A stretch of DNA of 64,000 nucleotides from an uncultured bacterium (GTDB lineage: Bacteria > Patescibacteriota > Minisyncoccia > UBA6257 > 2-01-FULL-56-20). Location: positions 489,493-553,492 of the forward strand of contig OY970175.1 of assembly GCA_963707865.1 (NCBI GenBank), written 5' to 3'. A program made the position numbers and the translations under genes. Below, in pieces: positions 8,697 to 58,391 of this stretch. The notes below the pieces were generated by a model that saw only the letters and a program-made list of their open reading frames with translations, was not told where the DNA came from and did not search any database. How positions within the stretch are numbered: the stretch's first letter is position 1; every line of letters begins with the position of its first letter.

Positions 8697-8851
8697 GAAT
8701 GTTCCCTTCCCATGTACAACGGCAACAACAACGTTGTAGCGACGATATTCGGCAATGGTGGCTGTAATTACGCCAACTACGGCAACGTCGGCAACAACAA
8801 CGGCAACGAGAATAGCTACAACTTCCGTTGCGCGCGCTAGCCCTTCAGCCA
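8697..8851 (+). repeat. DGR template repeat (TR)
   Basis: About 155 bp, ~88% identical to the VR at 10420-10575 when VR is taken on the minus strand. All 18 mismatches are A in TR (AAC codons) against non-A in VR. Includes the shared GC-rich 3-prime end ttgcgcgcgctagcccttcagccag. It lies inside a 42-codon + strand ORF from the ATG at 8712; the + strand stops upstream at TAA 8688 and at the shared TAG at 8839. Confidence 0.85.
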
Positions 8852-10419: not shown

Positions 10420-10575
10420 ATCTGGCTGAAGGGCTAGCGCGCGCAACGGAAGGAGTAGCTATACCCGGCGCCGTAGTTGGCGCCGACGGGGCCGTAGGTG
10501 GCGTAATTACAGCCACCACCGCCGAATATCGCCGCTACAACGGCGCTGTTGCCGTTGTACATGGGAAGGGCAGTA
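10420..10575 (-). repeat. DGR variable repeat (VR) at 3-prime end of target gene
   Basis: Reverse complement matches TR 8697-8851. VR carries G, C or T at every TR adenine that differs. Homology extends ~14 nt past the stop codon (cccttcagccag). Confidence 0.85.
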
Positions 10576-19412: not shown

Positions 19413-19440
19413 GGTTCTCACGTCGTCCAGCCGCCGGAGC
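19413..19440 (+). repeat. 28-bp tRNA-3-prime-like repeat, copy R1 (outlier)
   Basis: ggttctcacgtcgtccagccgccggagc. Confidence 0.8.
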
Positions 19441-25045: not shown

Positions 25046-25391
25046 TTTCTTTGTCTTTTCTAATCACACTCCAGTGGTAAAGGTAAAGCGGAACACCAAC
25101 AATGATCATTGCCAAAGCGGTGGCTGCGTCGCGTTCGCGCTGGCTTGTAATTTGGTTATTCTGGAAAACCTCCAGGTCGGCTTGGCTCGGCTGCTGCACC
25201 ACCGCCGCTTTTCCATCCGGCGACGAAACCGGCGCCGCCATCGGATATTGATAGACCTGATCTGCCTTTGTGAAAACGAACGCCCTGAGACCCAAATTGA
25301 CAAGCTGAACGCAGCCAATGACGACCAAAATCAAACCGATAAACGAGAACGTATAGAGATATATTTTCCTTATTAAAGGATACTTATTCAT
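25046..25391 (-). CDS. Small membrane protein
   Basis: Start taken at MNKYPLIRKIYLYTFSFIGLILVVIGCV. The ORF-track N-terminal extension overlaps the upstream gene. Confidence 0.4.
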
Positions 25392-26943
25392 GTTCGCTTT
25401 TGATCTTCCCCCGCAGCGTCCGGAGTTCGGCGAGCGCTTTTTGCGCTTCCCCGGGTTTGAATGGCTTTGCATGCCAACGGTAATCGTTCTCCATAAAATC
25501 AACGCCCTTGCCGGGAATTGTGTGCGCAATGATGCAGGTCGGCATCTCGTAAATGGCCTTCGCTTCATTAACCGCCGCGATGATTTCTTCAAAACTGTGG
25601 CCATCAATTTCCAAAACATGCCAGTTGAACGCTTCATACTTCGCGCGCAAGGGCTCTAAAGGCATCACGTCCTCGGTAAAGCCGTCTATTTGGATATTAT
25701 TGCGGTCCACGATGACGGTGAGGTTGTTCAAACGATGTTTCCCTGCGAGCATAATCGCCTCCCAGGTGTTGCCTTCCTCGTGCTCTCCGTCGGAGGTCAA
25801 ACAATATGTTCGCCATTTCTTGCCGTCCATACGCGCCGCGAGTGCGATACCCACGCTCTGCGAGATACCGGAACCAAGCGGACCGGAGGTCGTTTCAATG
25901 CCGGGGAGGGCGGTGCGATGCGGATGGCCCTGCAGCCGCGTACCAAGCTGCCGCAGCGTCTTCAATTCCTCCACCGAAAAATATCCCGCGTGGGCGAGCG
26001 CCGCATACTGAACCGGGCAAATATGGCCATTGGAAAGTACCACACGGTCACGCTCCGGCCAGCCGGGCCGCTTGGGATCGTATCGCAAAATATGGAAATA
26101 CAGCGCGGTAAAAATTTCGGCCATGCCGAGCGGCCCCGCAATATGGCCGGAACCCGCATGCGAGACCATTTCAATCACGTCCTCGCGCAGGCGGTTCGCC
26201 ATGCGCTCCATCTCCTGTAATTTTTTTTCGGTGAGCGACTCCATATGTTCATTGCGCGCATGCGCCTCAACCGTCGCACGGTACCACTCCGAACGCGGAA
26301 GGCGGAGATGGACGAGATTGCCGTACGCCGCGGCCGGATCATCATTCCCGAAAATGTAGTTTCCCGACACCACGACGTCCGCGCCAGCCGCCTTCGCGCG
26401 CCGCGCGGTCTGCGGCACGATCCCGCCATCCACCTCAATTATAGCGTGAGGCATCTTTCGCCTCAAAAACCTGACCTTCGCGAGCGTGAGAGGAAGAAAT
26501 TTCTGTCCCGCAGGACCGGGGTAGACCGCAAGCACCTGAAACCGCGCGATTTTCCCAAAATAGGGTTCCAATTTTTTCACGGAGGTCTCGGGATTGAGCG
26601 CCAGCATCACCTCCGCGCCGTGCGCCACGCATTTCTCGCGGATCGCGTTGAATGTTTTTTCCTTTATGGTCTCTACGTGCATGATGAAACGCCTGGCGCC
26701 TACCGCGAGCCACCGGTCAATGTATGTTTCCGGCCGTTCCACCATCAGGTGCACTTCCAGATTGAACGGCGCGCGGAGATTCGCCCATTCTGTGGGACTT
26801 GCCCATGTTTTGTGGCGCGTGAACGCCCCGTCGGCGACATCAAGATGAAAAAATGTGCCGTTTTCTAAAAATGCTTTCGCGGCGTCCACGCGCTCCCGCA
26901 CGCAGCGCAGATTGGGACAATTGATAACAGGAAGAACTTCCAT
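25384..26943 (-). CDS. Fusion protein: ribulose-phosphate 3-epimerase (N-terminal) + transketolase N-terminal (TPP-binding) subunit
   Basis: First ~215 aa are RPE TIM-barrel (HLDVADGAF..., ...IEVDGGI...). The rest is the transketolase N-terminal part (GSGHIAGPLGMAEIFTALYFHILRYDP...SNGH). Confidence 0.75.
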   Translation of the reverse strand: MEVLPVINCPNLRCVRERVDAAKAFLENGTFFHLDVADGAFTRHKTWASPTEWANLRAPFNLEVHLMVERPETYIDRWLAVGARRFIMHVETIKEKTFNAIREKCVAHGAEVMLALNPETSVKKLEPYFGKIARFQVLAVYPGPAGQKFLPLTLAKVRFLRRKMPHAIIEVDGGIVPQTARRAKAAGADVVVSGNYIFGNDDPAAAYGNLVHLRLPRSEWYRATVEAHARNEHMESLTEKKLQEMERMANRLREDVIEMVSHAGSGHIAGPLGMAEIFTALYFHILRYDPKRPGWPERDRVVLSNGHICPVQYAALAHAGYFSVEELKTLRQLGTRLQGHPHRTALPGIETTSGPLGSGISQSVGIALAARMDGKKWRTYCLTSDGEHEEGNTWEAIMLAGKHRLNNLTVIVDRNNIQIDGFTEDVMPLEPLRAKYEAFNWHVLEIDGHSFEEIIAAVNEAKAIYEMPTCIIAHTIPGKGVDFMENDYRWHAKPFKPGEAQKALAELRTLRGKIKSEHE

Positions 26944-31431: not shown

Positions 31432-31713
31432 TCCGGCGTAGCTCAATGGTAGAGCGGCTCCCTGTCAAAGAAGGCAGCGCGCACTGGAAACGGTGCGATG
31501 AACATCTTGGGATAACGGTGAAGGCTAAACCGTATGGTATGCGAACACCGTGGGAACCCTGCGAAAGCGGGGGCTCCGTAGAGACTAGATACCGAGACGC
31601 CTAATGTTCGCTTTTGGTTTTCGCGGACGACGGCGATGATATAGTCCACGCCTTTTGGAAACATTGGGATTCGTGTAAGGAGATGGTTCCAGGTTCGAGT
31701 CCTGGCGCCGGAG
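31432..31713 (+). tRNA. Intron-containing tRNA (anticodon ambiguous: Asn-GTT or Thr-TGT depending on splice site)
   Basis: The 5-prime half TCCGGCG-TA-GCTC-AATGGTA-GAGC-G-GCTCC is interrupted in the anticodon loop. The 3-prime half GGAGA-TGGTT-CCAGG-TTCGAGT-CCTGG-CGCCGGA-G follows. Acceptor stem TCCGGCG/CGCCGGA is perfectly complementary. Confidence 0.7.
31464..31675 (+). ncRNA. Group-I-like intron (~215 nt) in tRNA anticodon loop
   Basis: The insert separates the anticodon stem halves. It contains a P7-like AGACTAGATACCGAGACGCC resembling the cyanobacterial tRNA-Leu group I intron core. Exact boundaries are uncertain by 2-3 nt. Confidence 0.5.
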
Positions 31714-31747
31714 CACCTAGTAAAAGTATCGGACAGACCGGGACGCG
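31686..31747 (+). other. Putative attachment-site core: tRNA 3-prime end plus ~30-bp downstream flank
   Basis: aggttcgagtcctggcgccggagcacctagtaaaagtatcggacagaccggg has near-copies after repeats R5 (37823-37878) and R9 (43286-43343), and a degenerate copy at 33925-33975. Confidence 0.55.
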
Positions 31748-34024: not shown

Positions 34025-34375
34025 ATGGATCAAAAACAATTTGTGCCTGTTATCGTCATTGTTGGTGCTATCGCCATGCTGGTCGGGGCACTTGATCCAT
34101 TGGAAGGGTCGGTCGTCATCCTTGTAGGCAGTGGCTTGGTGGCGCTCGGCACATTCCTGAGCAACGCCAGCCGACGCTTGCGTGTTTACTGGATATGGAC
34201 TTTCCTCTTGATAGCGTTCGGAGTTGGCGTGATGTTTGGAGCGAGCGCGATGGGAGGTTTTGGCGGCGCTACTGGACGTTCGATATGGTGGGCAGTTCTA
34301 GCCCTACCCTATCCCGTTGGTTGGGTAATGGGTGTCGTCAATCTGTTTTACAGACTTAGAAGAAAACGCGGTTGA
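34025..34375 (+). CDS. Small Gly-rich membrane protein (4 TM)
   Basis: A hydrophobic 116-aa ORF bounded by att-like repeats. Confidence 0.45.
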   Translation: MDQKQFVPVIVIVGAIAMLVGALDPLEGSVVILVGSGLVALGTFLSNASRRLRVYWIWTFLLIAFGVGVMFGASAMGGFGGATGRSIWWAVLALPYPVGWVMGVVNLFYRLRRKRG

Positions 34376-34403
34376 GATTATCAGCACATCTGACAATTTT
34401 AGG

Positions 34404-34431
34404 TGAGACAGGAGGTTCTAACGTCGTCCAG
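34404..34431 (+). repeat. 28-bp repeat, copy R2
   Basis: ggttctaacgtcgtccagccgccggagc. It shares an extra ~25-bp left flank (tgacaattttaggtgagacaggagg) with R3. Confidence 0.8.
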
Positions 34432-34555: not shown

Positions 34556-35575
34556 ATGGCATCGGAAATTCGACGGAACCCGATAACCAAGAAGTACGTT
34601 GTAATTGCAACAGACCGGGGTAATCGCCCGTTTGACTTTAAGGACGACTCAGTCGCAAACGACGACTCTCCCGAAGAGTGCCCGTTTTGCCCCGGACACG
34701 AAGGGAAAACTCCACCGACCATTTGGGCATATGGAACGCCTACTAACTGGACGGAAAGAGTGTTCGCCAATAAGTTCGGCGCTTTCAAGATCGAGGGCAA
34801 ACTTGAAAAACGGCGGCGCGGTCTTTTTCGGCTAATGAACGCCAGGGGCGCACACGAGGTCATTGTAGCCACGCCGCGACACGCAGGTCTGTATACCTTG
34901 ACCGACGAAGAAGCAACGAGGACCCTAATCGCATGCAGGGAAAGGATTAACGACCTGAAACTAGCGAGGGAAGAAAACAACGGGGACAAGCCGGGGGACC
35001 TGCTGCTCGCCTACATCATTGTTTTTGGAAACGAGGGGAGGGACGCGGCGGCTTCCAAAAAACACGGACATTTCCAGCTCATCGGCTTGCCGATCATCCC
35101 AGGAGACCTCTGGGAAGAATACCGGCGCGCAGAAGAGTATTGGGAAGATGAAAACACGTGCCTCTTCTGCGACCTCGTGAAGCAAGAAAGAGCGGAGGGA
35201 GAACGCGTTGTGACGGAAAACGACGTATTTCTTTCCGTCTGTGCGTACGCGCCACGGGTTCCTTTCGAAACATGGCTTCTGCCAAAGAGCCACCTCCCCA
35301 TCTTTGAAGATGGGAACGAAAGGACCATGACGGCACTCGCGGAGGTTCTCATGAATACCTTGCGTCGCATGGACAAAGCTCTCCATGGCGTCGCGTTCAA
35401 CCTCTACCTGAAAAACACGCCGTTGTTTGACCGAAATCACGATCGCAGAGTTGACTTTCGTATTGAGATCGTGCCTCGGTTAACAAAGCCCGCCGGATTC
35501 GAGTTCGGTACCGGGGTTTACATCAACCCGGTGCCCCCGGAAACTGCGGCCCAAACCTTGCGAGACGCTGGATGA
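34556..35575 (+). CDS. Galactose-1-phosphate uridylyltransferase-like (HIT superfamily branch III, GalT family)
   Basis: ECPFCPGHEG zinc motif and HGHFQLIG (HxHxQ) active site. Confidence 0.65.
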   Translation: MASEIRRNPITKKYVVIATDRGNRPFDFKDDSVANDDSPEECPFCPGHEGKTPPTIWAYGTPTNWTERVFANKFGAFKIEGKLEKRRRGLFRLMNARGAHEVIVATPRHAGLYTLTDEEATRTLIACRERINDLKLAREENNGDKPGDLLLAYIIVFGNEGRDAAASKKHGHFQLIGLPIIPGDLWEEYRRAEEYWEDENTCLFCDLVKQERAEGERVVTENDVFLSVCAYAPRVPFETWLLPKSHLPIFEDGNERTMTALAEVLMNTLRRMDKALHGVAFNLYLKNTPLFDRNHDRRVDFRIEIVPRLTKPAGFEFGTGVYINPVPPETAAQTLRDAG

Positions 35576-35689
35576 CGTCCAAAAACACGGAGGGATAGAT
35601 GAAGAGAGAATCAAGGGCGCTGACTGAAAGGAGGCAGCGCCCGCTCACCTAAGATTATCGCCAGACTGACAATTTTAGGTGAGACAGGA

Positions 35690-35717
35690 GGTTCTCACAT
35701 CGTCCAGCCGCCGGAGC
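35690..35717 (+). repeat. 28-bp repeat, copy R3
   Basis: ggttctcacatcgtccagccgccggagc, consensus copy. Confidence 0.85.
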
Positions 35718-35720
35718 CGA

Positions 35721-35759
35721 GAAAAAAAGTAGCTGCGAGAAACATCATTTCGCAGCTAC
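35721..35759 (-). terminator. Rho-independent terminator of metallopeptidase cassette gene
   Basis: Hairpin gtagctgcg...cgcagctac followed on the minus strand by T7. Overlaps the last codons. Confidence 0.5.
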
Positions 35760-36317
35760 TTGAGCTATACGCAGCCACTTTCTGATCAGTGCCTGCTGTT
35801 CATCGTCCGGCGGTGGTCCCAGGCGACTTCGAAACTTCTTACCGGGTCCTTGTAGGGTCCAACTCACTGACTCCGCAAAATCCCCGGCGCCGAAGAGATA
35901 GTCTGGACAAGTCCTGCTTAACGACGGCGGATACCAAGGCGTATTCGGTGGCAACTTGCGAAGTGCAAGCCACCCATGTCGCATCTCGGCAGTAAGGAAT
36001 CGCACATCGAAGCCGTGTGCAAGCTCGTGGACGATCGTCGTAGCCACGGCTTCCGGCGACTGTGAGGAACGAATCCAGATATCGATAGTATGTCGCTCGG
36101 GATCGCAAAGACCCAAGAGGTGGGGCCGCCCTTGATGGAACTTAATTTTCCACTCAGGAAATATGGGCCGCCAGTCCCAATTCACTTTCTTCAGAGCTTC
36201 TTGACCAACCTGTTTGTGACGAAGAACCGATAGGGTTTTCTGAGAATGGATTATTTGGGCAAACGACGATGTCGTCGCTATGCCCACAAGAAATACAAGC
36301 ACGACGGGACGCCTCAT
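35745..36317 (-). CDS. Secreted HExxH zinc-metallopeptidase-like protein
   Basis: Signal peptide MRRPVVLVFLVGIATTSSFAQ and IVHELAHGFD. About 80% identical paralog at 50910-51479. Confidence 0.6.
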   Translation of the reverse strand: MRRPVVLVFLVGIATTSSFAQIIHSQKTLSVLRHKQVGQEALKKVNWDWRPIFPEWKIKFHQGRPHLLGLCDPERHTIDIWIRSSQSPEAVATTIVHELAHGFDVRFLTAEMRHGWLALRKLPPNTPWYPPSLSRTCPDYLFGAGDFAESVSWTLQGPGKKFRSRLGPPPDDEQQALIRKWLRIAQVAAK

Positions 36318-36404
36318 CGTTAGCCTCCTCTAGTGAATTTGTTTCCAAGACCTATATTCCTTGTAGCTTGCTATTGATTAACCCGTCAAGGGACAAAGTA
36401 AATA

Positions 36405-36432
36405 GGTTCTAACATCGTCCAGCCGCCGGAGC
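36405..36432 (+). repeat. 28-bp repeat, copy R4
   Basis: ggttctaacatcgtccagccgccggagc. Confidence 0.8.
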
Positions 36433-36526
36433 GGTGATGAGATAATCAAGGATTTCAGCTTCTTGTGGTAGCCAGGCGTGGTAATTCGCCGTTTTCTTTT
36501 AACCGATTCCGAGATACTATGAGCGT

Positions 36527-37813
36527 ATGAAGCCGGTCTACATTATGGAGGATATTGTGCGTCCCAAGCCAGTTGCCAAATCCAACGGCGCGAAGTTTGT
36601 TAAAACGGTTTTGAAATTATCCGGCGTAAAGATCCCCTTTTTTATTTGGTTCGTCATCATCCTTGCCGAAACGGTTGGCATGGTGAGAATCGCGAAGGTA
36701 TCTCAACCGGACGTGGCGATGGATGTCCCCCAAGCGGCGATTATGGTGCAAAACGTCGCCGCGCCTCTCGCTTCTATTTCCACTTCTTCTACTTCTACCG
36801 TCATCTCTACTTCTACTACGGCCACCACAAGTTTTGGATCATTGCCGGTAGTCCAGGTGCCTCCCTTCAAGGCGACGAGTACGGCGACATCCAGCAGAAA
36901 AACCGCCACGCAACCAAGCCAGCCAAAGTCAGCACAAATTCCAACAGCAGTTACCGCGAGGTCGCTCTTGGACGCTACCACGCTTTCCGTGAGCGAGGAG
37001 CATGACGGTCCCTATAAAGTTACATTCGTAACGGACGCGGGCACATACGGCAAGATACCATGGAGTCTGGACGATGCTACGCTCACGGTGAGCGAATCCA
37101 TGCCGAGCTTCTCCGTTTCTTTCTCTTGCAATCCGTTACCAAACACGCCAAATCCCAGCGCACCTGACCAAAATCCGACGTTCGACGTAAGGGCTTCCTA
37201 TACCTGCACTATAGATTTCACTCCTACTTCTGGAAGCGATCATCGGACACAATCCAAGCAATTCTCTTTCGCGACCGGTGCCGGTCAACTCATTATTACA
37301 CCGCCGTCGTCCATGAATACCATGCTTAATAACAACGCAAACTTCGGAGGATTTATTTTCAGGAACGATGATACCCAACCAATCACTATTACCGGGTTGG
37401 ATATTGATGTTTCGTATAGGGGCTTAAATATTATAAATACCCCTTTGGTTTTGAGAGTTGAAAATCCCGCCACCGGAGTTTCACTTGTCGATTACCATTT
37501 AGAGAAACTGGCGGCAGATCCGTCCTCTTCTTATGCGTATGCCGGGACGGACATTCACATCCCGCTTTCCTTTACGCTCGGCGCCACGAGCCAGAAGATG
37601 CTCCCGGTTGATATTTTGGGTGTACAGAGATTGAGTATCTATGGGATTAATCCAACTATCGCTGTCACGCTGCGTGGGGTGACGACAAACCAAAATATGA
37701 ACAAGATAGTGCTCAGCTCCCCTAAAATTTCGTGGTCATGCATCGTTCCCCTTGGCGCATACGATCCCAATGCAACCAGCGGCCCATATGCAACTGGTCA
37801 AGCATGTCAGTAG
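36527..37813 (+). CDS. Secreted/membrane-anchored hypothetical protein with Ser/Thr-rich linker
   Basis: N-terminal TM IPFFIWFVIILAETVGMV. No recognisable domain. Confidence 0.5.
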   Translation: MKPVYIMEDIVRPKPVAKSNGAKFVKTVLKLSGVKIPFFIWFVIILAETVGMVRIAKVSQPDVAMDVPQAAIMVQNVAAPLASISTSSTSTVISTSTTATTSFGSLPVVQVPPFKATSTATSSRKTATQPSQPKSAQIPTAVTARSLLDATTLSVSEEHDGPYKVTFVTDAGTYGKIPWSLDDATLTVSESMPSFSVSFSCNPLPNTPNPSAPDQNPTFDVRASYTCTIDFTPTSGSDHRTQSKQFSFATGAGQLIITPPSSMNTMLNNNANFGGFIFRNDDTQPITITGLDIDVSYRGLNIINTPLVLRVENPATGVSLVDYHLEKLAADPSSSYAYAGTDIHIPLSFTLGATSQKMLPVDILGVQRLSIYGINPTIAVTLRGVTTNQNMNKIVLSSPKISWSCIVPLGAYDPNATSGPYATGQACQ

Positions 37814-37822
37814 CAAACCCGA

Positions 37823-37878
37823 GGTTCTCACGTCATCCAGCCGCCGGAGCACCTGGTAAAAGCATCGGACAGACCGAG
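37823..37878 (+). repeat. Repeat copy R5 with extended tRNA-flank homology
   Basis: ggttctcacgtcatccagccgccggagcacctggtaaaagcatcggacagaccgag parallels the tRNA 3-prime end plus flank at 31686-31747. Confidence 0.85.
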
Positions 37879-37951
37879 AGGGATAGCCCTCGGTATGGGT
37901 AAAAGAAAAAGTGCCTTTCTCAAGGCACTTTCTTCTTGGGGAACAAGACTG

Positions 37952-38182
37952 TTACATCTTCCCTTCATGCTGCGCACAACAACCGCAGGATCTCTTAGCC
38001 AACTTCACACATCCCGCGATGATAATAAGAATCGGCCAGATAATATTGACGAATCCCCACGTAATGACGCCGAGCGCCCCGAGCAGGAAATCAAACCCGA
38101 ACAGGATAACGAGAGCCGGTATGGCCTGGTGACATCCGCACCCACAGGTCTTTCCGCCCATTTTTACACCATCATTTTCCAT
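37952..38182 (-). CDS. Small Cys-rich membrane protein
   Basis: MENDGVKMGGKTCGCGCHQAIPALVILFGFDFLLGALGVITWGFVNIIWPILIIIAGCVKLAKRSCGCC. The longer ORF-track version runs through repeat R6 and is rejected. Confidence 0.35.
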   Translation of the reverse strand: MENDGVKMGGKTCGCGCHQAIPALVILFGFDFLLGALGVITWGFVNIIWPILIIIAGCVKLAKRSCGCCAQHEGKM

Positions 38183-38228
38183 GGTACGTAGTCTTGAGCA
38201 CACTCGACCTTTCTGTTCCATTATATCA

Positions 38229-38261: not shown

Positions 38262-39584
38262 TCAAAGATTTTTCTTTCGTTTTTTTCTTCGCGAGCTCGA
38301 AGGAAAGTCCGTACCTGCGAACAATTTATTATTCGTAATCGCCTCATGGACGAGACGCGTTACCGCATCATATCCAAGTTTTGGAATAAGGAAAGTTGCG
38401 TACGCCGTTGAACGCTGAAGGAGTTCTCTGCAGCGATCGGGGTCGGCCGTGATGAGGGCAAAACATCGGCGCGAAGCCTGCGTAAGTACTTCATTAATAA
38501 GTTTCCCGGATGCAAGCAATCGATCGGCGATGAGTGGCGTCATTACGCTCAATTCAAGTTGGGCCGCTTGGGCTGCTTCGCGTATTGCAAGGTCGTTTCC
38601 CATCACGAAAAAATGCAACTGATTGAGCGCTTCAAGGAGCACCGGATTTACCTTCCCTGGCATGATCGAGGAACCCGCCTGGAGTGGAGCAATTTCAATC
38701 TCGTGAATGCCACCACGCGGACCGCTTGCAAGAATGCGGAGGTCGTTCGCAATCTTTGAAAGATCAATGGTGAGCATCACGAATGCTGAGGATAGCATAC
38801 AAAAATCAGTGGCACTCATCGTTTGCGCAGAGAGATTCTTGGCGGGACGAAGCGGCAAGTGAAGTGAACTTCGCAAGTCACGATAGAGAACTGCCCTAAA
38901 ACGGGGTGTCACATTTACGCCATTCCCCACCGCACTACCACCCAGATTAAGCTCATAGAGATATTGTATTGCACTCGCAATGCGCTGCCGGTCCCGTTCA
39001 ATAAGCGCCGCGTATGCCGCAAATTCCGCGCCAAGCGTGATAGGAACCGCGTCCTGGAGATGAGTACGTCCAAGCTTTTTTATTTTCCGAAATTCACTTG
39101 CTTTTCGCGTGAGCGTCAGTACGGCCATGTCAGCATTCCGCATCATTTCCTTGGCAATATTAAGACAAGCGATCTTGAGCGCCGAAGGAACCACGTCGTT
39201 CGTGGACTGACCGACATTGACATGATCGTTGGGATGAATAGGAACTTTCCGAGAATGCTTCCTGCGGGACAATAGTGCCATTCCTCTTGCGGCGAGCACT
39301 TCGTTTATATTCATATGGACGGAAGTCCCTGCCCCTCCTTGAAACGAAGGGGTTACAAATTGATCATCCAGTTTTCCGGCTAGGGCCTCTCTGCACGCAC
39401 GAATGATCGCCCGTGCCCGAGGTCGATCAAGAAGCCCTGCGGCAAGGGCTGCATGGGCTGCGGAACGCTTGATCCATATGATGCTTTGGATCAATTCTCG
39501 ACTAACCGGCGGCACCGAAAACGGAAAATTACGAAGTGCTGCTTCGGTTTGCTCACCATAATAATGACGATTTTTTGATGCCAT
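38262..39584 (-). CDS. Aspartate ammonia-lyase/class II fumarase family lyase
   Basis: Fumarate-lyase signature GSSIMPGKVNP, TNDVVPSA, and N-terminal ...ALRNFPFS. Confidence 0.75.
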   Translation of the reverse strand: MASKNRHYYGEQTEAALRNFPFSVPPVSRELIQSIIWIKRSAAHAALAAGLLDRPRARAIIRACREALAGKLDDQFVTPSFQGGAGTSVHMNINEVLAARGMALLSRRKHSRKVPIHPNDHVNVGQSTNDVVPSALKIACLNIAKEMMRNADMAVLTLTRKASEFRKIKKLGRTHLQDAVPITLGAEFAAYAALIERDRQRIASAIQYLYELNLGGSAVGNGVNVTPRFRAVLYRDLRSSLHLPLRPAKNLSAQTMSATDFCMLSSAFVMLTIDLSKIANDLRILASGPRGGIHEIEIAPLQAGSSIMPGKVNPVLLEALNQLHFFVMGNDLAIREAAQAAQLELSVMTPLIADRLLASGKLINEVLTQASRRCFALITADPDRCRELLQRSTAYATFLIPKLGYDAVTRLVHEAITNNKLFAGTDFPSSSRRKKRKKNL

Positions 39585-43285: not shown

Positions 43286-43343
43286 GGTTCTCACATCGTC
43301 CAGCCGCCGGAGCACATAGTAAAAGCATTGGGCAGACCGGGAG
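43286..43343 (+). repeat. Repeat copy R9 with extended tRNA-flank homology
   Basis: ggttctcacatcgtccagccgccggagcacatagtaaaagcattgggcagaccgggagg. Confidence 0.85.
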
Positions 43344-43468
43344 GCCATAATAAAACCTGTGAATAAGAACTTACAGCCGGGATCACATCGAAAGCATCGC
43401 CTGCCCTTTTTGTTTTTCAAAAATAAGGGTGGTACGCCTTGGTCTACTAGGGCGAATTAGAGAATGAA

Positions 43469-47474: not shown

Positions 47475-47502
47475 GGCTCTCATATCGTCCAGCCGCCGGA
47501 GC
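47475..47502 (+). repeat. 28-bp repeat, copy R12
   Basis: gggctctcatatcgtccagccgccggagc, directly abutting the IS481-family element. Confidence 0.75.
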
Positions 47503-48505
47503 ATGTTTCATGTCCGTACATTTGTCCCCTCGATAGATTGAAGATATTCGACCGGCGTCTTTCCGGCAAGGGCAAGGTGAGGACAGATGGTATTGTACCA
47601 GGCACAGTAAGCGGCCTGTTTTTGTTTTGCCTCGGCCACGGTGCGGAACGCCACCTTGTTCCAGAACCGTTCCCGGTCGTTGCGGTGGGAACGTTCCACC
47701 TTGCCGTTCTGCGCGGGATGCCCGGGAGCGATGAGATAGTGGACCATCTTCTGTTTTGCGCAGGCGAGGTCGAACGGATGCAACCGCGGCTTCATGGGGT
47801 CAGCTGATTTCGGATATCCTATGTAGCGATTCGTAAAGATGGATCCGTTGTCGGTCTTCACCGCACGGATGCGGAACGGTGCGGCCGCAATGACCCTTTC
47901 GAGAAACAGGATCGCGGTTCTCGTGGATTGTTCCTGGGTTACCCACAGATGCCGCCACCGGGTGCAGCAGTCGATCGCGGTGAACTGGTAGAGCCAGTTG
48001 CCCTTGAATTTCCTCACGTAGACGACGTCGATCTCCACCATCTCGCCGGGGAACGTGGCCGTCGGTTTCCACTTTTCCTTGGGCGTGAGACGCTTCTTCG
48101 TACGCGAGAGGCCTTCACGCTTCAATACTTTTGCAATGCCGCGTGCCGAGAGCCGCATGCCTTCGCGGGCGAGGAGGTGTACGAGCACGTCCGGACCGAG
48201 ATCGGTCTCCGTTCTCATAGTCCGGATCTTTTTCACGATATCTCGCGAAAACTGTTTTGGGTGTGCGTGCGGCCTGCGCGATCTGGGCACGAGGGCGCTC
48301 GCCCCGCCACTGCGATATGCCGCCACCCAACGCTTCAGCGTACGGTATGAAAATGGTGCGTGGGCAGCAATGGCCTTGATGCTCATCTCTTTTTCAAGAT
48401 GCGGCCTGATCCACCGCATTCGTTCCTCCGCTGCGTCTTTGGCAAGTGTTTGTGGCATATTCCCCAGCTTACGCTTCGAGGGGCCATATGTATGTGCAGA
48501 GTACC
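47495..48505 (-). mobile_element. IS481-family insertion sequence (distinct from the 57.4/63.1 kb copies)
   Basis: Carries the 316-aa DDE transposase. Imperfect terminal inverted repeats of the type TGTCCGTACAT / ATGTATGTGCA. Exact ends are uncertain. Confidence 0.5.
47508..48458 (-). CDS. IS481-family DDE transposase
   Basis: N-terminal HTH, integrase catalytic core with DNGSIFTN...NGKVERSH. Confidence 0.85.
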   Translation of the reverse strand: MPQTLAKDAAEERMRWIRPHLEKEMSIKAIAAHAPFSYRTLKRWVAAYRSGGASALVPRSRRPHAHPKQFSRDIVKKIRTMRTETDLGPDVLVHLLAREGMRLSARGIAKVLKREGLSRTKKRLTPKEKWKPTATFPGEMVEIDVVYVRKFKGNWLYQFTAIDCCTRWRHLWVTQEQSTRTAILFLERVIAAAPFRIRAVKTDNGSIFTNRYIGYPKSADPMKPRLHPFDLACAKQKMVHYLIAPGHPAQNGKVERSHRNDRERFWNKVAFRTVAEAKQKQAAYCAWYNTICPHLALAGKTPVEYLQSIEGTNVRT

Positions 48506-48616: not shown

Positions 48617-50452
48617 ATGTGCGGAATCGTTGGCTATATCGGAGATAGAGATGCCCTGCCCATTCTTATGGATGGCATCAAAAAGTTGGAGTATCGAGGA
48701 TACGATTCCGCCGGGATCGCGATCCTTTCAGAGAGCGGTGTACGAACGGCCAAAGCAGTGGGCCGCGTGTCAAACCTTGAGGCAAAAATAAAAAACGGAG
48801 ATTTTTCTGGCAGATCCGGGATCGTCCATTCGCGCTGGGCGACGCACGGTGGAGCGACGGAAAAGAACGCGCATCCTCATGCGGACTGCAACGAACTATT
48901 ATGGATCGTCCACAACGGCATCATAGAAAACCACAAAGAGCTGAGGGCGCACCTTATAAAATCAGGACATGTCTTCCGCTCCGAGACGGACACGGAGGTG
49001 CTCGCGCACCTGATCGAAGAAAAGCGCAAAGGGAAAACAATCCCGCTTGAAGAGGCGGTGAGCGAGGCACTCAAGGAGATCCGTGGAACCTACGGCATCG
49101 TGGTCCTCGATGTCCAAGATAAGAACAAACTTGTCGCGGCGCGCAATTTTAGTCCCCTTCTTGTTGGTCTCGGCAAAAATGAATACTTCGTGGCTTCCGA
49201 CGCCTCGCCTATCATTCGGCATACAAGGGACGTGGTATATCTACAGAACGGGGAGATGGCGATCCTCGAGCGGAACGGCTATCGGATCGTAACGCTCGAC
49301 AATCAAAGCGTAAACCGCCCTGCTTCAGTCATAGAATGGAGCACGGAAGAGGCGGAAAAGGGCGGTTATCCTCATTTCATGCTGAAAGAGATCATGGAAC
49401 AGCCTGAGGCGATCCAAAACTCGCTTCGCGGCAGGCTGGTCGCGGATCAGGGCCTTGCGAAGCTCGGCGGGTTGGACAGTGTAGTCGAACGCGTTCGCGA
49501 GATCCGGCGGCTGTTCATCGTCGGATGCGGGACGGCCTATTTCGCGGGACGAGTGGGCGAATACATGCTTGAAGAATACGCGGGAGTCCCCGTCAAAACC
49601 GATATTGCTTCCGAATTCCGCTATCGCAAACCCGTTTTCCGCGAAGGAGACGCCTTGCTAGTCCTTTCCCAATCGGGAGAAACCGCCGACACGCTTGCGG
49701 CCCTCGGCGAAGCGAAACGAAAGGGCGTGCTCACGCTTGGGATCGTGAACGCCGTCGGTTCGACGATCACTCGGGAAACGGATGCGGGCATCTATCAGCA
49801 CATTGGCCCCGAGATCGGGGTTGCCTCCACCAAGGCATTCACTTCCCAAGTCTCCCTCCTTGCCCTGCTCACGGTCTTCATGGGACGCCAGCGGGAAATG
49901 TCCCTCGCAACGGGCAAGCGCATCGTTGAGGAACTTGCCCTGATCCCGGAAAAAATAGCGCGCATCCTCTCGCAGCGGGACCGCATCAAAGAGATCGCAA
50001 AACGACACGTGGGAGCGCGGAATTTTTTCTATCTGGGACGGAAATACAATCTTCCCGTCGCGCTCGAAGGCGCTCTGAAAATAAAGGAGATCTCGTACGT
50101 GCATGCGGAAGGCTGTGGCTCTGGCGAACTGAAGCACGGCCCCATTGCGCTCATCGAGCCGGGATTCCCTTCGGTATACATCGTGCCGCACGATTCCGTA
50201 CGTGATAAGAACCTTTCGAACCTGCAGGAGATCCGGGCCCGGGGCGGGACGATACTCGCCGTCGCGACGGAAGGAGACAAAGAAATTGAAGAGTTTGCGG
50301 AGGATGTTATCTATATACCGAAAACGCTTGAAATGCTCACTCCGATCCTCGCGGTAGTTCCTTTGCAACTACTCGCCTACGAGTCGGGAGTCGCTCGGGG
50401 ACACGACGTAGACAAGCCCCGGAATTTGGCGAAGAGTGTGACTGTCGAGTGA
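48617..50452 (+). CDS. glmS: Glutamine--fructose-6-phosphate aminotransferase
   Basis: N-terminal MCGIVGYIG (Ntn Cys). Two SIS domains. C-terminal ...KSVTVE. Confidence 0.9.
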   Translation: MCGIVGYIGDRDALPILMDGIKKLEYRGYDSAGIAILSESGVRTAKAVGRVSNLEAKIKNGDFSGRSGIVHSRWATHGGATEKNAHPHADCNELLWIVHNGIIENHKELRAHLIKSGHVFRSETDTEVLAHLIEEKRKGKTIPLEEAVSEALKEIRGTYGIVVLDVQDKNKLVAARNFSPLLVGLGKNEYFVASDASPIIRHTRDVVYLQNGEMAILERNGYRIVTLDNQSVNRPASVIEWSTEEAEKGGYPHFMLKEIMEQPEAIQNSLRGRLVADQGLAKLGGLDSVVERVREIRRLFIVGCGTAYFAGRVGEYMLEEYAGVPVKTDIASEFRYRKPVFREGDALLVLSQSGETADTLAALGEAKRKGVLTLGIVNAVGSTITRETDAGIYQHIGPEIGVASTKAFTSQVSLLALLTVFMGRQREMSLATGKRIVEELALIPEKIARILSQRDRIKEIAKRHVGARNFFYLGRKYNLPVALEGALKIKEISYVHAEGCGSGELKHGPIALIEPGFPSVYIVPHDSVRDKNLSNLQEIRARGGTILAVATEGDKEIEEFAEDVIYIPKTLEMLTPILAVVPLQLLAYESGVARGHDVDKPRNLAKSVTVE

Positions 50453-50457
50453 GTTAA

Positions 50458-50862
50458 TTGGAGCTTAGTTCGAGCATCGGCGCCGGAGCGGATATTGTAA
50501 TAGTTTGGAAAATAGCTCAGAATGAATTTATGAAAACCTCCCCTCGAACCGTCGGATTCGTTCAGGCTGCCGGTTTGACATTATACGTGAGTCTTTTCGC
50601 CGTGTTCATCCAGCAAGCGCAAAGTTGGTTCTTATTTCACGGCGTTCAAGCTAGTCCTGCTATGAGCATCGTCCTTTTCCTGCTCGCCTTTGTCATCTCG
50701 GCGCTCATCTGTGGCTCGCTGATCCTGGGCTACCCGCTTCTGCTTTTCTCTTCCGGCCAGCACAACGAGGCGATGAAAATCGTTCTCTGGAGTCTCCTTT
50801 GGCTCGTCGTCCTAGCCCTCTGCATCGCGCTTATTGGTTTCTCTTTCCTGTCGAGGTTCTAA
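50458..50862 (+). CDS. Small membrane protein (4 TM)
   Basis: A hydrophobic 134-aa ORF. Its stop codon lies within repeat R13. Confidence 0.45.
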   Translation: MELSSSIGAGADIVIVWKIAQNEFMKTSPRTVGFVQAAGLTLYVSLFAVFIQQAQSWFLFHGVQASPAMSIVLFLLAFVISALICGSLILGYPLLLFSSGQHNEAMKIVLWSLLWLVVLALCIALIGFSFLSRF

Positions 50863-50882
50863 CGTCCTCCAGCCGCCGGAGC
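50855..50882 (+). repeat. 28-bp repeat, copy R13
   Basis: ggttctaacgtcctccagccgccggagc. Confidence 0.8.
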
Positions 50883-50909
50883 GGAGAAAAAAAGTAGCCG
50901 CGGGAAACA

Positions 50910-51479
50910 TCATTTCGCAGCTACTCGAGCCATACGCAGCCACTTTCCGATCAGTGACTGCTGTTCATTGTCCGGTGGCGGTCCCAGGCGACTTCGAAAC
51001 TTCTTGCCAGGTCCTTGCAGAGTCCAACTCACCGACTCCGCAAAGTCCCCGGCGCCAAAGAGGTAATCCGGACAAGTCCTGCTCAACGACGGCGGATACC
51101 AAGGCGTATCCGGTGGCAACTTGCGAAGTGTAAGCCACTCGCGCCGCATCTCGGCAGTAAGGAATTGTATATCAAAGCTGTGTGCAAGCTCATGAACAAT
51201 CGTCGCAGCCACAACTTCCGGCGACTGTGAGGGACGAATCCAGATATCAATAGTACGTCGCTTGGGATCACAAAGACCAAGGAGATTGGGCCGCCCTTGG
51301 TAGAATTTAATTTTCCACTCAGGAAGTATGGGCCACCAATCCCAATTTACTTTCTTCAGGGCTTCCTGGCCCACGTGTTCATAACGAAGAGCTGATGGGG
51401 GTTTCTGAAAATTTGTTTGGGCAAACGACGATATCGTCGCTATACCCACAAGAAGCATAAGCAGGACTGGACGCTTCAT
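50910..51479 (-). CDS. Secreted HExxH zinc-metallopeptidase-like protein (paralog of 35745-36317)
   Basis: MKRPVLLMLLVGIATISSFAQ...IVHELAHSFD. The whole repeat-to-repeat cassette is duplicated. Confidence 0.6.
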   Translation of the reverse strand: MKRPVLLMLLVGIATISSFAQTNFQKPPSALRYEHVGQEALKKVNWDWWPILPEWKIKFYQGRPNLLGLCDPKRRTIDIWIRPSQSPEVVAATIVHELAHSFDIQFLTAEMRREWLTLRKLPPDTPWYPPSLSRTCPDYLFGAGDFAESVSWTLQGPGKKFRSRLGPPPDNEQQSLIGKWLRMARVAAK

Positions 51480-51566
51480 CGTTGGCCTCCTCTAGTGAAT
51501 TCGTTTCCAAGACCTATCTTCCTTGTAGCTCGCTATTGATTAACTCGTCAAGGGATAAAGTAAGCA

Positions 51567-51594
51567 GGTTCTCACATCGTCCAGCCGCCGGAGC
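51567..51594 (+). repeat. 28-bp repeat, copy R14
   Basis: ggttctcacatcgtccagccgccggagc, consensus copy. Confidence 0.85.
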
Positions 51595-51652
51595 ATATGT
51601 GCTATAATGAGCGTCAAGGTCGAAAAGATAATTTTCGAAAGTAAATACTATT

Positions 51653-51847
51653 ATGAAAGCACTTGCTTGCAGGGATATGGGTGTAGATTGCGATTTTGTT
51701 GCCAAAGCCGATACCGCAGAAGAGACAGTGAAAATGGCAACGGATCATGCACTGAAGGCTCATGCGGAAAAGATTGCCGAGATGTCAAAAACGATGTCTC
51801 AAGATGAAATGACAAAGGTAATGATGTCCAAGGTAAAGGATGTGTAA
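51653..51847 (+). CDS. DUF1059 small metal-binding protein
   Basis: MKALACRDMGVDCDFVAKADTAEETVKMATDHALKAH is the characteristic DUF1059 pattern. Confidence 0.6.
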   Translation: MKALACRDMGVDCDFVAKADTAEETVKMATDHALKAHAEKIAEMSKTMSQDEMTKVMMSKVKDV

Positions 51848-53505: not shown

Positions 53506-54771
53506 CTATCTCCTCCACCTGGCATTACCAAATTGGCGCGAGCCGGAAGGTGATCGCCGTGGAGGGCCGGAGCGCGGGCTTGAGCGCGAACCCGAGTGCG
53601 GACGGCCGAAACGAGAATGAAATGGTTGGCGGTCCGAAGGCGCAATTGCGCGCACAGGGGGAAGCTCGGGAAGTTTTGAAAGGGGCAGCGTGGAACGGAT
53701 AAGGTGTTCAATGGCGCGCACGTCGCCTTTTTGGTCCGGAGTGGCGAAGGAAATTGCATGCCCCGCGCCGCCTGCGCGCGCCGTGCGGCCGATGCGGTGA
53801 ACGTAATCTTCCGAACTCTGCGGAAGGTCGTAATTCAAAACAAGCTCTATCCCCTGCACGTCAATGCCGCGCGCCGCGATATCGGTTGCGACAAGCACGC
53901 GATACTTGCCGTTTCGAAATCCCTCAAGCGCTTCTTTGCGCTGACCGAGCGAGCGGTTGGCATGCAGTTCCGCAGACGCATAACCCAAGCTGCGTATTCC
54001 CGCCGCGATCTTTTTCGCTCCGTGCTTCGTACGGGAAAATACGAGGACTGAACCGCGATATTCCCCCAGTATTTTTTCCAAGAGTCGCGGCTTGTTGTGC
54101 TTCTCTACAAAGAAAAGCTCTTGGGTAACTTTCTCCACGGTCGTGCCGGACGGCGCGATCTCAACGCGCGTGGGAAGCTTCAAATACACTTGCGCTATCT
54201 TAAGAATGTCGGATGGCATGGTGGCCGAGAAAAGCATCGTCTGCCGCTCGCGGGGAAGAACGGCGAGAATGCGCTTCAATTGCGGCATAAACCCCATGTC
54301 AAGCATCCGATCCGCTTCATCAAGAACAAGAATGCCGACCGATTTCAAGGAGATCGTCTTCTGCTCCAAGTGATCAATGAGCCGCCCCGGCGTGCCGATC
54401 ACGATCTGCGGGTTCCTGCGAAGCGCCTGGATCTGGCGGCCGATGGATTCACCGCCGATCAAAACCGCGGTCCGGATGCCGAGGGGGGTGCCCACCCGGC
54501 GGAACACGTCGTCCACCTGCAACGCGAGCTCACGCGTGGGCACGATGACAAGCTCCTGTTTTCCGCCGAGCGCCGCTTGTATCATGGGCACGCCGAAGGC
54601 AAGCGTTTTCCCCGTTCCCGTCTGTGCGATGCCAATAAGGTCCTTTCCTTCGATAGCCGAAGGGATGCATTTTTCCTGAATGGGCGTGGGAACCGCAAAA
54701 CGAAACTTATCCAACACCTCCAATATGTTCGGAGCGATCCCGAGATTATAAAAGCCAGACGGAGAACCCAT
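53506..54771 (-). CDS. DEAD-box ATP-dependent RNA helicase
   Basis: Q motif, AQTGTGKT, DEAD, SAT, and HRIGRTARAG, with an Arg/Ser-rich C-terminal tail. Confidence 0.85.
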   Translation of the reverse strand: MGSPSGFYNLGIAPNILEVLDKFRFAVPTPIQEKCIPSAIEGKDLIGIAQTGTGKTLAFGVPMIQAALGGKQELVIVPTRELALQVDDVFRRVGTPLGIRTAVLIGGESIGRQIQALRRNPQIVIGTPGRLIDHLEQKTISLKSVGILVLDEADRMLDMGFMPQLKRILAVLPRERQTMLFSATMPSDILKIAQVYLKLPTRVEIAPSGTTVEKVTQELFFVEKHNKPRLLEKILGEYRGSVLVFSRTKHGAKKIAAGIRSLGYASAELHANRSLGQRKEALEGFRNGKYRVLVATDIAARGIDVQGIELVLNYDLPQSSEDYVHRIGRTARAGGAGHAISFATPDQKGDVRAIEHLIRSTLPLSKLPELPPVRAIAPSDRQPFHSRFGRPHSGSRSSPRSGPPRRSPSGSRQFGNARWRR

Positions 54772-57392: not shown

Positions 57393-58391
57393 TGCACACA
57401 CATATGGCGGACTCCCGTACAATCGGGGAATGTCGATCCATATGGCTGAGAATATCAAACAAGAGCGGGTGCGGTGGGTGGAACCCATTGTAAAAGGTCG
57501 CACAAGCACCACCGAAGTGATGAAGGTGTTTCCGTATGGGAAGCGGACCTTGGAGCGGTGGCTGCAGGCATACCGGCGTGGCGGTGAATCAGCGCTTGAA
57601 CCGCGTTCCACCCGGCCGAAGACCTCGCCCAAGGAAACACCGATCAGCATCAAGGAAGCAATCATCGCGTTGCGCAAGAAGAGAAAGGTCTGCGCGCTCA
57701 AACTGCATTGGAAGCTCGAAAAGGTGGGCATCCATATCCATGAGCGCACCATCGGAAAAATCTTGAAGACAGAAAGGCTCGTGCGGAAGTATCGTACCAA
57801 AAAGATCACGTACAAATATATCAAAGCCACCTGGAAGCCTGGCGACCTCATGGAGATCGACGTGAAGCATGTGCCGGGAACCGTTGCGGGACGTGCATAT
57901 TTTCAATATACGGCGATCGATTGTGCCTCCCGCTGGCGCTACCTCCGGATTTTCGAGGAAGAGTCCACGCAGAACACCCTCCTCTTTCTTGCGGATGTCA
58001 TCCGGCGATTTGAATATCGGATCACCGGCGTGAAGACGGACAACCATGCGACCTTCACCAACCGGTACACGGGCACGTACAAGCGGGCGGATCTTTCGCC
58101 TGCCCATCAACACGCTTTGGACCGCTTCTGCGCCGAACGCGGCATCGTGCACTACCTCATCGATCCGGGGAAGCCCGCGCAGAACGGCAAGGTCGAACGC
58201 TCGCATGGGTCGGACCAGAGAACGCTCTACCACGAAACAACATTTGCTTCGGCAAAGGATTTGCGCCAAAGGGTACGATGGTGGAATACTGAGTACAACA
58301 ACCTTGAACACTGTGGCCTGAATGGCAAGACGCCGAACGAAGCGCTTGCCGAGTTCAAAACCTAGTCCGCCATATGTGTGTGCCTAAAACA
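57393..58391 (+). mobile_element. IS481-family insertion sequence, copy A
   Basis: Terminal inverted repeats GTGCACACACATATGGCGGACT (left) and AGTCCGCCATATGTGTGTGCC (right). Identical inverted copy at 63100 onward. Confidence 0.75.
57430..58365 (+). CDS. IS481-family DDE transposase
   Basis: 311 aa with HTH and a DDE core (DNHATFTN...NGKVERSH). Identical to the ORF at 63126-63974. Confidence 0.85.
   Translation: MSIHMAENIKQERVRWVEPIVKGRTSTTEVMKVFPYGKRTLERWLQAYRRGGESALEPRSTRPKTSPKETPISIKEAIIALRKKRKVCALKLHWKLEKVGIHIHERTIGKILKTERLVRKYRTKKITYKYIKATWKPGDLMEIDVKHVPGTVAGRAYFQYTAIDCASRWRYLRIFEEESTQNTLLFLADVIRRFEYRITGVKTDNHATFTNRYTGTYKRADLSPAHQHALDRFCAERGIVHYLIDPGKPAQNGKVERSHGSDQRTLYHETTFASAKDLRQRVRWWNTEYNNLEHCGLNGKTPNEALAEFKT

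Follow-up and report, generated by a model that had tools for sequence, protein, structure and literature searches.

The 64-kb stretch of DNA analyzed here (the window; 64,000 nucleotides of contig OY970175.1, from an uncultured member of the Patescibacteriota) carries two paralogous genes for a putative metallopeptidase, each lying between two copies of a 28-bp repeat, and the question raised by this locus is what was copied and by what means. A preliminary description had proposed that the repeat-bounded module was the copied unit and that the repeats delimit mobile cassettes. We conclude, with a probability that we would place at roughly 0.6, that the two peptidase modules belong to a cassette array that is anchored at a tRNA-Asn gene and uses the 28/29-bp repeats as recombination sites, that a large serine recombinase (LSR) is the probable enzyme, and that the second module was generated by recombination at these sites.

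Pairwise alignment of positions 35500 to 36600 with positions 50665 to 51765, followed by partitioning of the identities by segment, showed that similarity between the two cassettes (A and B) starts at the GGTTCT of the left repeat (35690 and 50855) and stops at the GGAGC of the right repeat (36432 and 51594). The bounds of homology are therefore the edges of the repeats that flank each peptidase gene on both sides. The left repeats are identical at 25 of 28 positions and the right repeats at 27 of 28; between them, identity is 88.9% (24/27) in the 27 nt from repeat to stop codon, 86.7% (497/573 nt) in the coding sequence (CDS), and 90.8% (79/87) in the 87-nt 5' leader. In the 60 nt beyond either end of the cassettes, A/B identity is 39 to 42%, which is the level of unrelated DNA. 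Identity is thus not confined to the coding region: the flanks are at 89 to 91%, and the drop to about 40% comes just outside them. This result bears out the earlier proposals that homology extends through both intergenic flanks, including a conserved upstream leader, and that the module, not the gene alone, was copied. The figure of about 80% identity given for the paralogues holds for the proteins (81%) but not for the nucleotide sequences (about 87%).

Cassette A opens, on the tRNA-proximal side, with the site at 35690 to 35717 (+ strand; GGTTCTCACATCGTCCAGCCGCCGGAGC), which scored 50.3 bits against a position weight matrix (PWM) of the repeat. The cargo gene (35745 to 36317, - strand) encodes a 190-amino-acid candidate secreted HExxH (HELAH) zincin-like metallopeptidase, and it is preceded by a 5' leader and promoter region that includes the ribosome-binding site GGAGG (36318 to 36404, - strand; the counterpart in B is 51480 to 51566) and in which cctctagtgaat..gtttccaagacctat is conserved between the copies. 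The site at 36405 to 36432 (+ strand) forms the tRNA-distal end and, in our model, would be the copy that belongs to the cassette. Cassette B has the same plan, with a site at 50855 to 50882 (+ strand) that overlaps the stop codon of the open reading frame (ORF) at 50458 to 50862, a gene for a 189-amino-acid paralogue at 50910 to 51479 (- strand), and a tRNA-distal site at 51567 to 51594 (+ strand). Downstream of gene A, at 35720 to 35759 on the - strand, a hairpin with arms at 35729 to 35738 and 35750 to 35759 is followed by a U-run, and it is kept in B (50885 to 50924). The preliminary description had read this structure as a terminator, and rightly so: GTAGCYGCG...CGCAGCTAC folds on the - strand with -22.1 and -19.7 kcal/mol in the two copies (z scores of -3.1 and -2.2), and U7 comes after it in both; this makes it an intrinsic terminator that overlaps the stop codon.

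The two copies differ by 12 to 13% at the nucleotide level. The dN/dS ratio between the peptidase genes is 0.26, which indicates that both have been maintained, and the dS value of 0.355 means that the duplication is old rather than recent. The corresponding distances from A and B to the homologue at locus L027 are 0.72 to 0.82 (L numbers designate loci fetched for comparison).

In both peptidases, the N terminus is signal-peptide-like, the HELAH sequence is present, and the HExxH and GxGDFAE motifs are invariant. Their family, which is uncharacterized, is small (45 proteins), and the sole Pfam match of the two proteins was a subthreshold one to DUF6782, a "putative metallopeptidase." The best PDB folds for an AlphaFold model (pLDDT, 90.5) are all zincin metallopeptidases, namely, selecase, anthrax lethal factor, and IrrE, with E values of about 0.02 to 0.05, and a profile search of PDB sequences gave a weak indication that the HExxH region is that of zinc metalloproteinases. 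A secreted zincin-like peptidase is therefore a reasonable but unproven assignment. More distant homologues (L028 to L033; 53 to 56% amino acid identity) are found in other genomes and have no 28-mers nearby, which argues that the peptidase family is cargo and not a part of the system.

The repeat, (A)GGTTCTMACRTCSTCCAGCCGCCGGAGC, occurs 16 times in the window, always on the + strand. Eleven copies of the sequence found at the left end of cassette A were recovered at up to three mismatches, compared with an expectation of zero, and 16 at up to five mismatches. The PWM scan returned the same 16 copies at 32 to 50 bits and nothing between 8 and 32 bits, and the maximum in shuffled sequence was 15.7 bits. 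Fifteen of the 16 occur between genes in the stretch from 34.4 to 56.6 kb, regardless of the direction of the flanking genes, and form a co-oriented array from 34414 to 56629 with site starts at 34414, 35690, 36405, 37823, 38228, 39640, 42690, 43286, 44931, 46628, 47475, 50855, 51567, 51917, and 56602. The modules between these sites are 0.35 to 4.7 kb long and mostly contain one gene, in either orientation; over the whole window the spacing of sites ranges from 350 to 15,000 bp. Many sites lie 5 to 20 nt upstream of the extended -10 boxes (TGnTAnAAT) of + strand genes, at a variable distance, and several are at the ends of convergent genes (19413, 35690, and 50855). In a conservation profile of some 60 distinct copies, taken both from the window and from 40 fetched loci, there is an A at position -1, information is high at positions 1 to 28 except 7, 10, and 13, and almost none is present outside; conservation ends abruptly at ...GGAGC. 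The 28-mer does not fold stably (-1.5 and -4.7 kcal/mol), Rfam searches around the sites gave no match at either gathering or E-value thresholds, and a search of IMG/VR gave 0 matches and, hence, no sign of a viral origin.

Several further observations concern the surroundings of the sites. The 16th copy (19413 to 19440, + strand) is perfectly conserved but solitary; it lies 12 kb upstream of the tRNA-Asn gene and about 1.3 kb downstream of a tRNA-Glu gene, between two convergent genes (an NYN-domain gene and a 302-amino-acid ORF of unknown function), and, being outside the array, it is not explained by the array model. A conserved stretch, gattatc...ctgacaattttaggtgagacagga, is found just upstream of four sites (window 34374 to 34413 and 35650 to 35689; L027 1103 to 1126, reverse complement; L004 3487 to 3510), and its GTGAGA could pair with the TCTCAC of the 28-mer; these sites may thus have a longer module end in common. 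L009 and L011 are linked by another class of shared upstream stretch. Repeat-bounded modules also contain genes for glmS (48617 to 50452), a Lyase_1-family lyase (38262 to 39584), and a DEAD-box helicase (53506 to 54771).

The array has a tRNA-Asn(GUU) gene at its head. This gene (31432 to 31714, + strand) consists of exons at 31432 to 31465 and 31676 to 31714, which add up to 73 nt and match the intact 73-nt tRNA-Asn of L001 at every base (100%), and of a 210-nt group I intron (31466 to 31675) in the anticodon loop. Because the intron splits the gene, it was missed by ARAGORN; it was also missed by Rfam at the gathering threshold. The tRNA-Asn gene of L023 (about 10540 to 10830, - strand) bears an intron likewise. 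The Rfam group I intron model (RF00028) scores 22.6 bits in the window and 35.4 bits in L023, short of the gathering score of 50 in either case, and we know of no earlier description of such an intron in tRNA-Asn.

The 3' end of the window tRNA-Asn, GTCCTGGCGCCGGAGC, resembles the GTCCAGCCGCCGGAGC of the site, and the 3' 16 nt of the repeat match the tRNA 3' end (...GGTTCGAGTCCTGGCGCCGGAGC) at 14 of 16 positions in the window and at 15 of 16 in L023. The 3' 16 nt of the repeat derive from the end of tRNA-Asn, that is, from the 3' strand of the T-stem, the 3' strand of the acceptor stem, and the discriminator, and the 5' 12 nt are element specific and not tRNA sequence. The relationship extends to position as well. 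Sites lie downstream of tRNA-Asn and are co-oriented with it in the window, L001/L018, L005/L015, L006/L021, and L023, so that the layout is present in at least four lineages besides the window. In every fetched locus with both a tRNA gene and 28-mers, the tRNA is tRNA-Asn(GUU), with the 28-mers 3' of it on the same strand; the sole other tRNA in these loci is a tRNA-Arg beside the tRNA-Asn of L005/L015. Furthermore, about 30 nt of the sequence 3' of tRNA-Asn recur after the sites at 37823 and 43286 and after the third repeat of L027 (L027:83), and a BLAST comparison of L027 with the window gave a match at 31699 to 31743, which is the 3' flank of tRNA-Asn. In this long form, a site is followed by a copy (ACCTRGTAAAAGYATCGGACAGACCGRGA; 37851 to 37882 and 43314 to 43345, + strand) of the sequence directly 3' of the tRNA gene (31715 to 31745).

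The motif (TTTAGTATC/AAAGTATC)GGACAGACCGAGAGG is conserved in these three places, just 3' of the tRNA-Asn of L001, and at about position 5770 of L004. Its TTTAGTATC is also the zinc-ribbon-domain motif of the Listeria A118-family integrase (PMC3783163), which is probably a coincidence, and its position fits the distance expected of a right half-site. L023 has, in addition, a genuine second partial tRNA 3' end (GTTCGATTCCCAGGCGCCGGAGC; 10311 to 10333, - strand) with an intact T-loop, about 200 bp 3' of its intron-bearing tRNA-Asn; it is an att-type direct repeat of the classical kind, outside the 28-mer family.

Comparisons between genomes support the view that the repeat-to-repeat modules, not the genes, are the units that are exchanged. 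The peptidase homologue on L027, a metagenome contig (75% amino acid identity; 80% nucleotide identity to both A and B) is flanked by repeats on both sides and shares with copy A the 24 nt to the left of the left repeat. After its peptidase cassette, L027 has a different module of about 290 bp in place of the 428-amino-acid gene of the window, and the module after that opens with the same sequence as window position 37851; a different module between matching ones marks this as a cassette replacement. The small membrane-protein module at 37851 to 38227 is 80% identical to L004 5777 to 6172, where its neighbors are unrelated, and L001 and L004 have a common 166-bp segment that begins right after a site in both. 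Dense co-oriented arrays also occur in relatives: L004 has eight co-oriented sites within 4.9 kb, spaced 559 to 733 bp apart with about one gene per module, and these genes include those for a HAD hydrolase, an S51 peptidase, and a sortase. The cargo in L023 includes an alpha/beta-hydrolase, an aldo-keto reductase, and a SET-domain protein. Replacement in L027, recurrence of a module in L004, and the dense arrays in relatives thus lend support to the preliminary description's suggestion that the repeats delimit mobile cassettes.

Which enzyme acts at these sites is suggested by the related loci. The 58 ORFs from the 28-mer loci include one (L009:1267-2952) for an LSR with Resolvase, Recombinase, and Zn_ribbon_recom domains, homologues of which are abundant in Patescibacteria, and its 3' end runs antisense over a 28-mer that is identical to the window copy at 34414. 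Seven such genes, that of L009 included, were examined in their context. In four of them, the 3' end lies antisense over an intact tRNA-Asn(GTT) gene (L034, 94% identity; L038, 72%; L036 and L041, 60%), which is the chromosomal attB of this LSR family. The other three abut a site of the 28-mer type (L009; L040, 83%; L042, 88%), those of L040 and L042 being variants. The sequence that follows ...GGAGC, which forms the end of the LSR gene (ATTGATTGAGATCG...), is the same in L009, L034, L040, and L042, related in L036 and L038, and different in L041. This shared sequence maps the crossover to the point at which conservation of the 28-mer stops: the LSR junction reads GGAGC/ATTGAT, and the GGAGC/ATTGATTGAG of 28-mer sites is identical to the tRNA-Asn junction of L034. 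The order in L040 is a tRNA-like 3' end, 91 bp, a site, and the LSR gene, which makes the LSR element there one module of an array itself. Sites that adjoin an LSR gene and have the crossover at their edge were found in the related loci only.

The geometry of the site may also fit a serine integrase. The distance between GGTTC and GGAGC is 5 bp greater in the 28-mer than in the tRNA, if the GGTTC of the T-loop is taken, and a second GGTTC in the variable loop of the tRNA gives another offset. In serine integrases, the zinc-ribbon-domain motif lies 5 bp further out in the attP than in the attB half-site, and an attP-type half-site reaches about 24 to 25 bp from the central dinucleotide (PMC3783163). 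The 5-bp offset observed here would agree with such an attP-versus-attB arrangement, which is suggestive but not proof. As a separate observation, about 4 to 27 of the last LSR codons span the attachment site, antisense to tRNA-Asn or the 28-mer (L009 2871 to 2952; L034 11605 to 11644; and likewise L036, L038, and L041); since the end of the gene is encoded across the site, the C-terminal tail of the protein changes with the state of integration.

We propose the following sequence of events. The two peptidase modules are copies of one self-contained cassette with its own promoter and leader, CDS, and terminator. Each 28-mer would consist of one recombinase arm of about 25 bp and the crossover core, and insertion of a circle would leave it at the tRNA-distal end of the module, so that the array would have the form tRNA(B-O)-[module-P-O]-[module-P-O]-..., that is, tRNA(B-O)-[P'x cargo P-O]n. 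The enzyme would most likely be a member of the patescibacterial LSR family whose gene ends overlap tRNA-Asn or a 28-mer-type site, and it would act in trans on cassettes that lack a recombinase, as Ccr does on pseudo-SCC elements. The second peptidase copy would have arisen by recombination at the sites, either by excision and reinsertion within the genome or by capture of a sister cassette from a shared pool, and both copies would then have been kept under purifying selection. We infer that an LSR built this array, that the 28-mer carries the element-side (P) arm, and that the cassettes may be mobile today; if so, a circularized cassette A would carry the junction ...GGGACAAAGTAAATA-28mer-CGAGAAAAAAAGTAGC.

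Several points weigh against this proposal. No LSR gene or remnant is present in the window, where tblastn with the L009 LSR matched only the antisense translation of the 28-mer, and Pfam and PHROGs searches of about 70 window ORFs found no recombinase except IS481 (rve) transposases, together with the reverse transcriptase of a diversity-generating retroelement (DGR); there was no Phage_integrase match among these ORFs. The sites have no convincing dyad axis (the best scores were 10 to 12 of 24, with no consistent axis), and the sequence to their right is poorly conserved, which leaves a complete LSR site with two arms undemonstrated. The distal end of a tRNA-Asn-integrated LSR element was not found within the 10-kb flanks; the assignment of the 28-mer as the P arm is therefore unproven, and the 28-mer may instead serve as a secondary target. 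The offset takes the value of 5 bp with only one of the two GGTTC motifs of the tRNA. The dS value between A and B means that there is no sign of recent movement. Housekeeping-type genes (glmS, the Lyase_1-family lyase, TsaD, pyrF, and the DEAD-box helicase) are found between sites; they are either extra captured copies or an indication that sites also invade core DNA. Finally, canonical LSRs recombine attP with attB only, and serial insertion at an occupied tRNA gene is not expected of them. The model consequently requires either a relaxed pairing like that of Ccr or recognition that is dominated by one arm.

Some of these points are what one would expect if the repeats were inert scars or dispersed repeats and no dedicated recombinase were involved, the duplication being due to RecA-type recombination or unequal crossing-over, with duplication of a block followed by repeat-to-repeat deletion. 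The window is indeed without a recombinase, the duplication is old, and near-identical 28-bp direct repeats every 0.35 to 4.7 kb supply homology. We consider this account unlikely, although not negligible: a length of 28 bp is at the lower limit for efficient homologous recombination, and the account leaves unexplained both the nearly base-for-base preservation of a sharp-edged site in lineages in which the DNA flanking the tRNA is only about 72% identical and the end of conservation exactly at the LSR crossover junction. Alternatively, the 28-mers may be pseudo-attB targets that mimic the tRNA-Asn 3' end, in which LSR elements such as those of L009, L040, and L042 merely land, the arrays being built by another recombinase, for example, a tyrosine integrase specific for tRNA-Asn. 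Canonical integration of an LSR element into a chromosomal target would yield the junction 28-mer/P'-LSR, and no 28-mer is found at the far end of the tRNA-integrated LSR elements within 10-kb flanks. Tandem accretion is usual for tyrosine integrases, and tyrosine-recombinase elements are known to form islands that are seeded at tRNA genes and in which partial tRNAs are scattered (tycheposons; bioRxiv 10.1101/2020.12.28.424599). Yet a single repeat family bounds every module, with no separate element-side arm visible, and no tyrosine recombinase was found in the window, in the individually scanned ORFs of L004 and L023, or among the 25 most-matched of 58 families for the 58 ORFs of the other 28-mer loci. 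Physical linkage to a site was seen for no recombinase but the LSR, and we regard the pseudo-attB explanation as rather improbable.

A role outside recombination, as a promoter or operator, a terminator or insulator, a REP/MITE-like element (repetitive extragenic palindrome or miniature inverted-repeat transposable element), or a DNA-uptake sequence, would make the coincidence of boundaries incidental. The copies are all intergenic, and the many that precede extended -10 boxes would suit such a role, but the distance to the -10 box varies, the copies at convergent gene ends do not fit, there is neither a stable fold nor an Rfam match, and the strict co-orientation, the clustering 3' of tRNA-Asn, and the LSR junctions would be left without an explanation; we find this role very improbable. 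Mostly single-gene cassettes between co-oriented repeats also call to mind a classical integron, or a cluster of attC sites lacking an integron integrase (CALIN), with attC sites served by the IntI tyrosine recombinase. We give this possibility almost no credence, since the R''/L''-L'/R' imperfect palindrome is missing from the unit of 28 to 29 bp, the cassettes are equipped with promoters and terminators of their own and face either way, and the sites derive from a tRNA 3' end. Scans of the window ORFs also found no intI, which is not decisive alone, as a CALIN would lack it.

Other identities were considered and rejected. An attC site is a palindrome of 57 to 141 bp with RYYYAAC...GTTRRRY boxes, and by inspection the GGTTCTM of our site misfits GTTRRRY. 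A Xer/dif-like site or pdif module would share the length of 28 bp, but the inverted arms are missing. Orphan CRISPR-like repeats are excluded by spacing, which is on the scale of CRISPR spacers, regular and 25 to 40 bp long, in no genome or metagenome match and is 350 bp or more in the window, and a REP sequence associated with a RAYT transposase is excluded because the unit is not palindromic. Uptake sequences (DUS/USS) occur in both orientations genome-wide, whereas the copies on each contig share one orientation and cluster 3' of tRNA-Asn. Neither a promoter -35 element nor an operator fits the variable -10 distance and the copies at convergent gene ends, no match to an extracytoplasmic-function (ECF) or sigma-54 promoter was seen by inspection, and no known RNA family was matched around the sites in Rfam.

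The window has other mobile or unusual elements. An IS481-family insertion sequence (47510 to 48498, - strand; transposase at 47508 to 48458) has 17-bp terminal inverted repeats (47517 to 47533 and 48476 to 48492) that are 88% complementary; it lies within about 10 nt of the site at 47475 to 47502, right next to glmS, and is a later intruder that is not part of the cassette system. Two more IS481-family transposase genes (57430 to 58365, + strand, and 63126 to 63974, - strand) are closer to each other than to the first. The DGR comprises a template repeat (8704 to 8852), a variable repeat (10422 to 10570), a reverse transcriptase gene (8837 to 10024, - strand), and a target gene (10434 to 11174, - strand). 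Its 149-bp template and variable repeats are 88% identical, with all 18 of the 18 mismatches at template adenines, and the orientation of the template repeat is opposite to that shared by the variable repeat and the gene for the reverse transcriptase. Finally, the ORF at 25384 to 26943 (- strand) encodes a ribulose-phosphate 3-epimerase fused to a transketolase N-terminal domain and is located in a sugar-metabolism cluster (starch synthase, PfkB kinase, and GAPDH) typical of genomes of the candidate phyla radiation (CPR).

CPR bacteria, or Patescibacteria, have tiny genomes, and their gene exchange is little understood. More generally than for this one array, we put forward as a tentative suggestion that some of them have an LSR-based, integron-like mode of capture, in which the LSR, in place of IntI, would recognize mainly one conserved arm of about 25 bp and the crossover core in common with the tRNA-Asn 3' end. 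This would allow small, self-expressed single-gene cassettes that lack a recombinase to be inserted serially at tRNA-Asn or at any of the earlier sites, and arrays with the same 28-mer after almost every gene would result. We found no paper on such arrays in Patescibacteria, which, as literature coverage is incomplete, is weak evidence of novelty. If the suggestion is true, a tRNA-anchored array of single genes that uses a fixed 28-bp site would give the flexible gene content of CPR genomes a concrete mechanism and would be a second, mechanistically independent solution to the problem, solved by integrons, of storing and shuffling single genes. The cargo across the arrays includes secreted peptidases, hydrolases, a sortase, and cell wall enzymes. 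A serine recombinase that tolerates one degenerate arm might also be of interest to genome engineers, and the 28-mer is a simple search key for such arrays in metagenomes.

The array combines features of tRNA-seeded islands, of composite islands of the staphylococcal cassette chromosome (SCC) type, and of the single-gene cassettes of integrons. In SCC and SCCmec, the LSR Ccr inserts multikilobase elements at the 3' end of a conserved gene, rlmH/orfX. Short direct repeats containing the crossover bound each such element, and tandem arrays include recombinase-less (pseudo-SCC) modules that rely on a recombinase in trans. A similar layout is seen here, with 15 co-oriented sites 3' of tRNA-Asn in the window, eight in 4.9 kb in L004, and the LSR element as a module in L040. 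The likeness is one of architecture, and there are clear differences: the target is tRNA-Asn, the hosts are Patescibacteria, the window has no recombinase, the modules are mostly single genes of 0.35 to 1.7 kb, and the site is a single arm and core of 28 to 29 bp.

The tycheposons of Prochlorococcus likewise have a full-length tRNA gene located at their proximal end, co-oriented partial-tRNA att repeats throughout an island of flexible genes, and "plug-in cassette" cargo that can duplicate (bioRxiv 10.1101/2020.12.28.424599), and this arrangement is found in the window, L001, L005/L015, L006/L021, and L023. Tycheposons, however, are mostly tyrosine-recombinase elements with replication modules, kilobase-scale cargo, and few partial tRNAs per island, whereas here there is a site after almost every gene, its 5' part is not tRNA sequence, and neither a tyrosine recombinase nor a replication module was found in the window or the scanned loci. 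The A118/phiC31/Bxb1 type of attP-by-attB integration (PMC3783163) resembles the present case in the LSR gene directly next to an att site, and the length of the conserved arm (about 25 bp with its core) and the 5-bp outward shift of a motif may fit its attP-versus-attB half-site geometry. This type of integration differs in being a single insertion, with attP insertion into attL or attR forbidden, whereas there are many serial junctions here and the second arm is not recognizably conserved. Integrons, like this array, have co-oriented sites between mostly single-gene cassettes that can be duplicated and whose content differs between relatives. Unlike integrons, with IntI, attC hairpins, attI/Pc, and mostly promoterless, co-oriented cassettes, this array is anchored at a tRNA gene and holds self-expressed cassettes, with genes on both strands that have their own terminators and extended -10 boxes.

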